This document shows positions 19,428 through 22,233 of a stretch of DNA of 64,000 nucleotides, piece after piece (the first letter of the stretch is position 1; each line of letters begins with the position of its first letter). A model generated the notes under the pieces. It worked only from the letters and a program-made list of their open reading frames with translations, did not search any database and had not been told where the DNA came from. Source of the DNA: Phyllosticta citribraziliensis. Taxonomy: Eukaryota. The stretch covers positions 1,612,001 through 1,676,000 of the forward strand of contig NW_027117347.1 of assembly GCF_038025025.1 (NCBI RefSeq), read 5' to 3'. The translations under genes were made by a program, and so were the position numbers.

Positions 19428-20076
19428 GGCGTAGGGTAGGGTAGGGGAGCGGGCAAGGAAAGGCGCAGATGGGCATTGGTGTGGGCGGGTGGGTGGGTGA
19501 GGCTAGCGTTAAAGCCGAAGGAGCATGGACTGGATGGACTGGATGGACTGCTGTTCGGGGTCGCGGTGTCGGGGTTTCGGACGTGAGGTGTCGCTTTGGT
19601 TGGCTGGTGGGTGCGAGATGCATGCTGAGAGTGCGGTCGACTCTCGATCGCAGGCAGGCGTTGGGCGAAGAGGTAGATGCACACGACGAGATCAATTCGA
19701 GTGGTTGACGACGGCGATTCCGCTTGATGGCCGCAATGGCTGGAGTAATTGCAGCGGTGCGATTTGGCAGGGCGTTGTGTTGAGGTCGAGTGTAGGTTGT
19801 GCACGTTCACAAGGTCGCCACCTGTGCAGGGGAGTGGCAGGCCGAAGTTATGACTTAATCGGCTTGGCCGAGACCGCCGCGCCGAGAGCCCGCCCGCCCG
19901 TCATCCTCTCAAATAATCAAAGGGCACAGCAGCACCTCTCTTCACACCTCAGTTCTCGACATCCGCTCAACGAACACTTCAACACGACAACACGACCTCA
20001 GCCTCTGCATCAACCAAACCACCTGCAATCGCCTCGTACACCCTACAGCAAACCCGTCGACACCTCCATCATCGTC

Positions 20077-21039
20077 ATGTTCAGAAGAGTCCTTGCGACC
20101 GCGCCTGCCTCGGCCGGCAAGCTCGTCGCCTCGGCCGCCAGACCTCAGATTGCCTCGCCGCTGCTGCAGCGGACAGGCGCCCCGGCCGTGGGCGGCGCTG
20201 TCGTCGCTCGCCGGAGCTACCACGAGAAAGATGAGTTGCCCTCCTGCTCCTCTTGATGCGACGCGGTCGCTGCGCTGGCTGCGTGGCGGGCGCCTCTGCA
20301 TCGCAGCGCTTTTGCCGAATCTTCGCCCCTCACGCACCTCACTCGCTCACACCCCTCTCTCCACACCCACCTTTGCACCATGCCGTTCCCCAGTTCCGCT
20401 CAGCAGCTAACAGCCTCAGCACTGCTCGACCACTACAACCGGCCGCGCAACGTGGGCAGCATGTCCAAGAACGACGGCGACGTGGGGACGGGCCTGGTGG
20501 GCGCGCCGGCCTGCGGCGACGTCATGAAGCTGCAGATCCGCGTCGACCCGGACTCCAACACCATCAGCGACGTCAAGTTCAAGACGTTTGGCTGCGGCTC
20601 CGCCATCGCCAGCTCCAGCTACCTGACCGAGCTCGTCCGCGGCATGACGCTCGAGCAGGCCGCCCGCATCAAGAACACCGAGATTGCGAAGGAGCTGTGC
20701 TTGCCGCCTGTTAAGCGTGAGTTTTTTCTCCCTCCTTTCTTTCCCTGTCCATCATCATCATCATCATCTTCTTCTTCTTCTTTTTCCGTTGTTCGTTTGT
20801 GCGCCGGTCGAGGGGCCGTCGTATCGCGAGGTCGTTCGGATTGCTGACATTCTTCGCCGCCAGTCCACTGCTCCATGCTCGCCGAAGACGCCATCAAGTC
20901 GGCCATCTCAAACTACTACACCAAGAACCCCAAGGCGCGCGCCACGGACCTCGGCGGCACCGGCGCACCGCTGCCCAAGGTCGAGATCGAGACCGTGACC
21001 GAGTCGCCCAAGGCGGCCACCGCTTCTGCCAATGCGTAA
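20077..21039 (+). CDS. ISU1: Mitochondrial iron-sulfur cluster scaffold protein IscU/Isu1
   Basis: Presequence MFRRVLATA...RRSYHEK, then VLDHYNRPRNVGS...GLVGAPACGDVMKLQI...KTFGCGSAIASSS...LPPVKLHCSMLAEDAIKSA. Intron 1 is AT-AC (20231-20422); intron 2 is GT-AG (about 20717-20863). Confidence 0.96.
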
Positions 21040-22233
21040 GCCAAGCAAAGCAAATCCGAAGGAAGAAAAAAACGAAAATCCCAGAAAAAAGGCGTGGCGG
21101 CCGTCGTCGATGAGCGCCGGCTGGGCTGAAGAGAAAATTGGTGGAGCGTCTGGAGGCGATGAGATCATGTTTCCCTATTCTTTCCCTTTTCTTCTCTAGG
21201 TCTTTTACCTCCTCTTTCCCCGCCGACGTAACCTGGGAAGACGCGCGAGCTTTGCGGCGGGCGAAGAGCGCAACGAACAGAGCGCACACACGAGCGAAAC
21301 ACTCGCTTTTGATTGTCGAAATCGGCCAATCGATCAACAGCGGCGGCGACAGTCCTGGCGGTAGACGATAACCTGGCACGCGTGGCCGTCGACGCCCTTC
21401 TCTCTTCTTCCCCCCTTTTCTCCTTGTACCACCAACCACTACAGTAGTCACCCTAGGCGTTCATCCTGTGTTTGCTTTTCCTCCTTTTCCTCTGCCGTTC
21501 GTGGGTTTTTGCTTTCGGCGCCTACCTATTCCTTTTTCCTGGATTTTTGACGGCCGACTGGCTCGTGGCGTGCAGGCGCTGGAGCGACGGCGGCGGCGGC
21601 GGCGGTGGTGGTAGTGGTGCGCATCGTCGCACATTCGGCCAGTTGAGCAGCAGACGCGTTCTGCGCTGAATGAACGCACGAAAGGAGGGATAGATGGAAC
21701 CGTTCGAATGACGCGTTCGGGGGAGTATATGGGACGGTCGGACGGTTGGATGGCTGGCTACCTCTCTACCTAGGTGCCCTGTCTGTCTGCCTTTTTTCGC
21801 CATGCAATGAAGAAAGTTATAAACCGTCATGTACGCAGCTGCAGTCTGAGCCGCGCGTGGGTGTGTGAAATGACCGTGACCAAAATTCTGCCCAAAGTGT
21901 AGCCCCACGACGATGGCGTGAGTGAGTGATTGAGTGGGTGGATGGATGACTGAGCGAAAACCAAAACAGCAGCAGCAGGATCGCGGGACGGGCAGGCGGG
22001 CAACCGGCACATTTATACGGACGGACGGACAGGGAGATGAGGCGAGGCAAGGCGAAGCAGGAGCATGCGTGGCACCATGGGACAATAGGTAGGTATTCTA
22101 GGCACGGCAGGACTACCACCAGCACCAGCTGAGCATCACGCCACCAGCAGCAATCCACCAAGGTAACTGATCAGAACACGCCGGAGAGTCAGGCAGGCAG
22201 GCAGGCAGACAGGCGCAGGGCGGTAAGGCCAAC

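Follow-up and report, generated by a model that had tools for sequence, protein, structure and literature searches.

An AT-AC first intron of probable U2 type in the iron-sulphur scaffold gene ISU1 of Phyllosticta citribraziliensis and related fungi

The ISU1 gene and its first intron

We analysed a window of 64,000 nucleotides (nt) from Phyllosticta citribraziliensis (assembly GCF_038025025.1, contig NW_027117347.1, positions 1,612,001 to 1,676,000 of the forward strand); all coordinates given here are positions of this window. The + strand at ~20.0-21.1 kb carries one three-exon gene, 20077-21039, for which translation and coordinates were recomputed. The termini of its first intron are AT and AC, and excision takes place at those bases. 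By checked taxonomy, Phyllosticta is a genus of the Botryosphaeriales (Dothideomycetes). Exon 2 alone matches the Pfam family NifU_N (PF01592) with an E-value of 1.3e-38, and the Phyllosticta model P0011, of 207 amino acids, matches the same family with an E-value of 1e-51 over profile positions 2-124 of 127. Structure-sequence matches are to yeast Isu1 (5t0v, E-value 3.7e-44) and to human ISCU (6nzu, E-value 1e-40). On account of the PF01592 match and of the structure matches to Isu1 and ISCU, we identified the gene as the mitochondrial iron-sulphur (Fe-S) scaffold gene ISU1. The protein search returned ISU1 of several species of Phyllosticta at 100% identity to exon 2, and both the N-terminus (up to YHEK) and the C-terminus of the three-exon model are identical to the annotated Phyllosticta protein P0007.

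The features of the gene are collected in Table 1. Exon 1 ends in AAA G, where the G is the first base of a Val codon (phase 1), and exon 2 opens with TG CTC GAC CAC at 20423. Besides the AG listed in the table, another AG lies near the end of intron 1 at 20412-13. The positions given in the original prediction for the end of exon 1, ATGAGT, GCTAAC, the two AGs, the AC and the start of exon 2 all agree with the sequence, and the stop codon that it expected upon retention of the intron is confirmed as a TGA in frame.

Table 1 Features of the ISU1 gene in the window. Strand and position refer to the window. Column Basis denotes the evidence for a feature.
Feature	Position	Strand	Description	Basis
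ISU1 exon 1	20077..20230	+	ATG, mitochondrial-type N-terminal extension, YHEK	Translation; RNA contigs stop or join at 20230
ISU1 intron 1	20231..20422	+	192 nt, AT...AC, U2-type signals	RNA contig joints
Intron 1 5' splice site ATGAGT	20231..20236	+	GTGAGT consensus except for A at +1	
In-frame TGA upon retention of intron 1	20254..20256	+	Closes open frame 19513..20256	
Intron 1 branch site GCTAAC	20406..20411	+	Presumed branch A 20410, 12 nt before last intron base	
Intron 1 3' end CAGCAC	20417..20422	+	Acceptor AC 20421-22; in-frame AG 20418-19 unused in RNA contigs	
ISU1 exon 2	20423..20716	+	Last two bases of Val codon, LDHYNRPRNVG...PPVK, NifU_N/IscU core	Pfam and structure matches
ISU1 intron 2	20717..20863	+	147 nt, GT...AG (GTGAGT...CAG)	RNA joint in all 4 runs
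ISU1 exon 3	20864..21039	+	Stop TAA 21037-21039	Translation; C-terminus same as P0007

Splicing at AT...AC together with removal of intron 2 gives an open frame of 207 amino acids that contains YHEKVLDHY. Only with this splice does the conserved N-terminal Tyr motif YHEK-V-LDHY stand at the right spacing from the core, a spacing that is found in 176/255 fungal proteins. We take the Tyr of YHEKVLDHY to be equivalent to the functional Tyr of the ISCU literature. A functional role of the N-terminal Tyr of ISCU is reported in PMC8617193.

RNA contigs across the junction

In order to assess the splice at the RNA level, four (X1, X2, X3 and X9) of the 24 public runs found were compared with 19900-21300 of the window. 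Assembled contigs were compared, not raw reads; such contigs report the presence of forms and no ratios, and rare forms are dropped from them. Runs X1 and X2 are of the same organism and X3 is of another one. X2, X3 and X9 have no coverage upstream of ~19974-20122 or in the interior of intron 1, and are uninformative there.

The joint between 20230 and 20423 was observed in three runs. In X2, a contig of 416 nt with a depth of 8389 makes this joint at AT..AC, with 109 letters on its shorter side and 0 ambiguous letters. In X9, an RNA-Seq library of a plant metagenome in which a relative 90-95% similar to the window is present, a contig of 1038 nt makes the same joint with a shorter side of 255 letters, and also joins 20716 to 20864, so that both introns are out. 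In X3, one contig stops at 20230 and another starts at 20423, and the loose end of each reads into the opposite exon, which amounts to the same joint. The joint is unshiftable, as it has 0 ambiguous letters. Intron 1 is thus removed exactly at A20231...C20422, giving YHEK-V-LDHY, and the splice of 192 nt that had been predicted in order to restore YHEKVLDHY is borne out. No joint at AG20413, AG20419 or GT20235 is present in the contigs of the four runs.

The GT..AG joint of intron 2 (20716 to 20864) was found in 4/4 runs. In X2 the contig spliced at intron 2 has a depth of 7250, and a contig retaining intron 2 (20687-20893) has a depth of 2353. The sole contig of X1 (1921 nt, depth 632) spans 19900-20716 unbroken with 0 differing letters, thus keeping intron 1, and omits intron 2 (GT..AG); because intron 2 is skipped, we regard this contig as similar to complementary DNA.

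Two minor features of the contigs may be mentioned. The X1 contig extends ~655 nt past 21300, roughly 900 nt beyond the stop codon of ISU1; the contigs are unstranded, and the extension could be either a long 3' untranslated region or an overlap with the transcript of a neighbour on the opposite strand. X3 also has low-depth, diverged ISU1-like contigs at 20558-20696 and 20866-20907, which differ by 2-3 letters in each short piece and include a stretch of 69 nt that is of the same length but diverged. The X3 sample probably contains a second ISU1, of another organism or a paralogue.

Enumeration of alternative splice sites

All combinations of GT, GC and AT donors at 20180-20261 with AG and AC acceptors at 20330-20444 were enumerated and those leaving the frame open and free of stops were kept. 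There are 77 such combinations, and AT20231-AC20422 is the only one that yields YHEKVLDHY. The expectation that no GT or GC donor would solve the junction was therefore correct. The best canonical pair that retains YHEK is GT20235-AG20393, which gives YHEKDDSAQQLTASALLDHY; its product is exactly P0007, a public model of 218 amino acids. The RNA contigs and the enumeration together rule this pair out. The AT donor would give YHEKALLDHY with AG20419 and YHEKASALLDHY with AG20413. As used sites, these two acceptors are ruled out by the RNA contigs and by the protein models described below. The original prediction had these AGs competing with the AC; they are used in no contig of the four runs and in no protein model, the residue A following YHEK in 0/219 proteins.

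The intron in related loci

We scanned a metagenome collection with TACCAYGARAARGRTRAGT, which consists of the Y-H-E-K codons, a G and a donor with position +1 left free (A or G); the pattern thus required TAC-CAY-GAR-AAR-G followed by RTRAGT. The scan returned at least 118 loci. Among the 118 listed, 24 encode ISU1 exon 2 downstream with 83-94% identity, and the remaining 94 are chance matches without ISU1. Position +1 is A in 24/24 ISU1 loci among the matches listed (ATAAGT in 23 and ATGAGT in 1), and in 24/24 of them an AC end stands directly before T[GC]-CTN-GAY-CAY-TAY. These loci collapse to 16 distinct introns of 103-145 nt, which together with the intron of the window make the 17 distinct introns considered in what follows.

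The interiors of the 17 distinct introns are unalike, and all of them have CT[AG]AC. Between the presumed branch A and the final base of the intron the distance amounts to 12 nt in 14/17 and to 11 nt in 3/17. In Trichoderma, according to portions of PMC4324775, the acceptor lies 16.5 +/- 7.0 nt from the branch, and the offsets peak at 11-14. The branch spacing of the ISU1 introns, as read from their motifs, is thus an ordinary value that is unusually invariant. In 10/17 distinct introns an AG (CAGCAC, TAGCAC or CAGTAC) ends 3 nt ahead of the intron's end, and in 7/17 it is absent; since it is absent in the latter, the AG is no universal part of the signal.

The lineage of the loci was judged with correct-model proteins only and with spliced translations; a ranking by summed tblastn scores was rejected, being confounded by the multi-domain protein P0001. 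Many of the ISU1 loci are Pleosporales-like. Among the matches listed, exon 2 of L048 and L002 is closest to a Lecanoromycetidae protein (96%). Exon 2 of L058 and L022 equals that of P0204, the next closest being Thermoascus, Histoplasma and Coccidioides (95%), and these two loci are Eurotiomycete-like. As the codon position and the termini are the same in loci that reach Lecanoromycete-like and Eurotiomycete-like fungi, the AT-AC intron is old.

Exons 1 and 2 of the loci were also joined at AT-AC, translated and compared with proteins. The translation of L058 agrees with P0204, which is encoded on a contig of 941 nt, in 144/144 residues with no gap. L036 agrees with P0073 in 144/145 residues, L027 with P0107 in 144/145 and L024 with P0057 in 143/145. 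The contigs of the matched proteins, of ~1 kb, are too short for introns and are therefore probably transcripts.

The AT-AC intron of L088 and L087 has 108 nt, a multiple of three, and no stop, so that read-through is an in-frame insertion of 36 residues. The public model P0151 is exactly this read-through model, and differs from the spliced form by 1 gap and 1 mismatch.

ISU1 in public protein models

Three protein searches returned 264 proteins, of which 9 bacterial-like ones were set aside. In 176 of the 255 fungal models YHEK continues with V-(L/I)-DHY, a further 74 run through the intron's 3' end, and the motif is missing from 5. The residue after YHEK, which is present in 219 proteins, is V in 166 and D in 53, and never G or A. 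A D at this position results from reading through G|AT; the read-through models continue as DK (GAT AAG) in 35 cases, DM in 8, DN in 4, DD in 3, DE in 2 and DR in 1. Of the models that cross this end, 74/74 have a Leu codon (CTG or TTG) at the junction and not Val (GTG), which means that none of these introns has G as its last base.

Class tallies were made from named genome annotations, with class labels of which those of Phyllosticta, Coccidioides and Alectoria were checked. Mis-modelled ISU1 was found in 36/60 named models of Dothideomycetes, 8/13 of Lecanoromycetes, 3/25 of Eurotiomycetes (one of Coccidioides immitis and two of Blastomyces), 0/25 of Sordariomycetes and 0/4 of Leotiomycetes. 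Taken together, no fewer than three classes of Pezizomycotina have the AT-AC intron, and the protein models by themselves suggest that it is absent or different in Sordariomycetes and Leotiomycetes. Conservation of the AT/AC termini among orthologues, one of the checks named in the original prediction, consequently held for the 24 listed loci and for three classes, and showed no sign in the models of the other two. Its warning that automated annotation would mis-model the gene proved accurate, with 74/255 fungal models affected.

Five public models (P0128, P0135, P0141 and P0142, beginning MRKIS..., and P0248, beginning MKKIC...) take their start ATG from the out-of-frame His-Glu codons (C-ATG-AR) and enter the intron. 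This start is a second recurrent error of gene callers at the junction of ISU1 exon 1 and intron 1.

ISU1 is mis-modelled in many genomes because gene callers are limited to GT/GC-AG. AT-AC-compatible public models do exist, for example P0011, P0012 and P0212, and with these the AT-AC splice is implicitly on record. ISU1 is essential and a widely used marker of mitochondrial Fe-S assembly. In the fungal classes affected, between a quarter and a half of the public ISU1 models, some from pathogen genomes, carry false insertions or have lost the N-terminal Tyr motif, and adding this case to training and curation sets would fix them.

Intron type

Apart from its termini, intron 1 has the signals of the major spliceosome. 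Both the donor positions +2 to +6 (TRAGT) and the fungal CTRAC branch are conserved, with ATRAGT and CT[AG]AC in 17/17 distinct introns, for which it has to be considered that the search pattern itself demanded RTRAGT. The donor is ATAAGT in 15 of them and ATGAGT in 2. The U12-type donor [AG]TATCC was found in 0/17 distinct introns, and the U12-type branch motif TCCTTRAY in the last 40 nt was likewise found in 0/17. U12 splicing is described as missing in Ascomycota and Pezizomycotina in passages of PMC2846911, and as for minor introns, passages of PMC10639083 report no convincing ones in Ascomycota and Basidiomycota. Both sources, in the same passages, report the U11, U12, U4atac and U6atac small nuclear RNAs as lacking in Ascomycota. 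On these motifs and on the literature on U12 loss, the reading of intron 1 as a U2-type AT-AC intron that is removed by the major spliceosome is well supported, in line with the U2-type character originally predicted. We consider it highly probable that the essential ISU1 gene of a Dothideomycete contains here a genuine spliceosomal intron of U2-type AT-AC.

Relation to known introns

U2-dependent ("type II") AT-AC introns are known from a few animal and plant genes. For fungi, parts of published surveys have them on record as a rare class in Dikarya. Non-canonical sites including AT-AC were confirmed by Sanger sequencing in Fusarium graminearum (excerpts of PMC3577648), and AT-AC makes up 69/14305 junctions in Trichoderma longibrachiatum (excerpts of PMC4324775). 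Ganoderma lingzhi has 13 AT-AC introns of ~92,000 (0.014%), one of which was Sanger-confirmed and was the source of a wrong gene model (excerpts of PMC11590231). In the corresponding parts of a kingdom-wide survey, AT-AC is especially rare in fungi and some such introns are U2-spliced (PMC7072748). The ISU1 intron resembles the U2-type AT-AC introns in having AT/AC termini on an otherwise major-type donor, ATRAGT, and branch site, and wrong gene models result in ISU1 as they do in the Ganoderma case. Unlike the recorded introns, it has been preserved in no fewer than three classes of Pezizomycotina with its codon position, termini and spacing unchanged. Our literature search found no description of an AT-AC intron in ISU1 or IscU, the table of 28 non-canonical genes in PMC3577648 lying outside that search. 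Intron 1 of ISU1 is thus a new and deeply conserved case of a known rare class, U2-type AT-AC, and not a new kind of intron.

Another parallel may be found in the Aspergillus telomerase RNA. According to portions of PMC4299874 (Kannan et al. 2015), TER1 carries AUA(A/C)GU, the A at +1 keeps step 2 of splicing from taking place, and changing A to G restores full splicing; an A at +1 is called "exceedingly rare among annotated introns", and reciprocal suppression between mutations of the first and last bases is cited. The step-2 logic of the original prediction, in which an A at +1 blocks ligation at AG and the first and last bases interact, agrees with these portions. The two introns are found in the same subphylum and share the donor (AUAAGU in 15/17 distinct ISU1 introns), with an A at +1 that, as far as the cited portions go for TER1, governs step 2. 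TER1 is handled there by the ordinary spliceosome, which for ISU1 intron 1 we infer. Unlike TER1, in which step 2 is blocked and the cleaved 5' exon is the product, the ISU1 intron has an AC end and goes through both steps. By the logic of pairing, it is for want of a last C to match the A(+1) that AUAAGU introns with an AG end halt after the first step in the telomerase RNA of Aspergillus.

In yeast, the step-2 block of a G1-to-A mutation is reportedly relieved when the last G is replaced by C (Parker and Siliciano 1993). ISU1 has the same A(+1)/C(last) pair as these suppressor introns. Unlike the engineered mutant intron of yeast, it is natural, evolutionarily conserved and located in an essential gene. 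It may serve as a natural example of A(+1)/C(last) pairing, taken from fungi whose lineage has no minor spliceosome. Sharing their donor, the ISU1 intron and the telomerase RNA intron would form a matched pair for studying the step 2 decision and a non-AG acceptor chosen by distance.

Proposed mechanism

We propose that the major spliceosome would recognise AUGAGU via positions +2 to +6 and branch at the A of CUAAC (step 1). Step 2 would then be completed by the A(+1)/C(last) pair, which would substitute for the usual G/G contact between first and last bases. The acceptor would be chosen by its distance from the branch, no AG being available; selection by distance is a plausible reason for the nearly invariant spacing of 11-12 nt. 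A change at one end only (to GT-AC or AT-AG) should severely impair step 2 and, ISU1 being essential, the pair would in this way be mutationally trapped. No regulatory role is needed for the AT-AC pair to persist.

A number of points weigh against the U2-type reading or the mechanism built on it. That the host is without minor small nuclear RNAs is taken from the literature, and the branch nucleotide A20410 is assigned from its motif. Orthologues with other donors (e.g. GTATGT) or with no intron could not match the search pattern, and the 24 loci correspond to 16 distinct introns, many of them Pleosporales-like. In X1 the contig keeps intron 1, drops intron 2 and is accompanied by no spliced contig; splicing is thus at times incomplete and may not be constitutive. 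The spacing of 11-12 nt falls within the usual fungal peak (11-14 in Trichoderma), which leaves selection of the acceptor by distance suggestive, and the mutational trap as an explanation of the conservation is pure reasoning from the proposed step 2.

Alternative explanations

A first alternative, which concerns the origin of the intron and is compatible with U2-type splicing as the best explanation of its present state, is that of a U12-type relic. Here an AT-AC intron of the minor spliceosome of early fungi would have been taken over by the major spliceosome after Dikarya lost U12 splicing, with its termini and the close spacing of branch and acceptor preserved. A short and constrained distance between branch and acceptor is typical of U12-type introns. 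The ISU1 intron resembles these in its AT-AC termini and in the fixed 11-12 nt from branch to end, and it is old, being found in at least three classes. The lineage has lost the minor spliceosome (passages of PMC2846911 and PMC10639083). However, traces of the U12 donor and branch motifs are found in 0/17 distinct introns, a distance of 12 nt is also the ordinary fungal mode, and a double mutation from GT-AG provides another origin. We therefore hold a U12-type origin to be rather unlikely. Intron 1 is in any case a concrete locus for the fate of AT-AC introns once Dikarya lost U12 splicing.

A second alternative holds that the intron is regulatory, as the original prediction had speculated. 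The output of Isu1 would be set by slow or conditional splicing, in which the intron is retained, the reaction stalls after the first step or the AG 3 nt upstream competes, and iron is a possible signal for this. The sole X1 contig (1921 nt, depth 632), which keeps intron 1 and lacks intron 2, points in this direction, as does the opposite pattern in X2, from the same organism, where intron 1 is joined and intron 2 is the only one with a retained form. The stop at 20254-56 would reduce protein output upon retention. The termini are deeply conserved with diverged interiors, and 10/17 distinct introns have the in-frame AG 3 nt before the end. Against this, contigs cannot measure ratios and drop rare forms; there is no AG joint in the four runs, and YHEK is followed by A in none of the 219 proteins. 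The AG is missing from 7/17 distinct introns, which excludes it as a universal part of such a mechanism, and a mutational trap accounts for the conservation equally well. The X1 retention is a weak hint of variable splicing, and we regard a regulatory role of this kind as doubtful. We would attach just as little weight to the wider idea that the AT-AC pair has been kept for hundreds of millions of years as a dosage valve for Isu1, working through an inefficient or conditional step 2 or through retention up to the early stop, with X1 as its "closed" state, and possibly as a U12-type fossil as well.

That a cryptic minor (U12-type) spliceosome splices intron 1 today is very improbable. Such a reading has the AT-AC termini in its favour and nothing else; the donor is ATGAGT or ATAAGT and not ATATCC, the branch is CTAAC and not TCCTTAAC, and the U12 motifs are found in 0/17 introns. 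In lacking the ATATCC donor and the TCCTTAAC branch the intron differs from U12-type introns, and its host lineage is reported to be without a minor spliceosome; in the passages concerned, the surveys report no minor small nuclear RNAs or introns in Ascomycota (PMC2846911, PMC10639083). This reading is close to refuted.

An artefact, in which the assembly would be wrong at 20231 or the gene would in reality use a canonical GT-AG pair (for example GT20235-AG20393, as in P0007), is of negligible probability and is refuted by the RNA contigs: several public annotations do use canonical pairs of that kind, but the X1 contig is identical to the window throughout intron 1, A stands at +1 in all 24 related loci among the matches listed (which also settles the doubt about A20231 named in the original prediction), no run has a GT20235 joint, the AT..AC joint is unambiguous, and canonical models disrupt or enlarge the conserved YHEKVLDHY.

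Additional observations at the locus

Intron 1 contains an ATG at 20381-20383 that is in frame with exon 2 (the frame 20257..20847 reads ...CTMPFPSSAQQLTASALLDHY). From a transcript that retains the intron or starts internally, an Isu1 lacking both the presequence and the Tyr of YHEK could in principle be made. Among the 16 distinct metagenome introns, an in-frame ATG was noticed within the last 40 nt of at least one, that of L057. The interior of intron 2 contains a simple repeat at 20738-20793, (CAT)n followed by (CTT)n.

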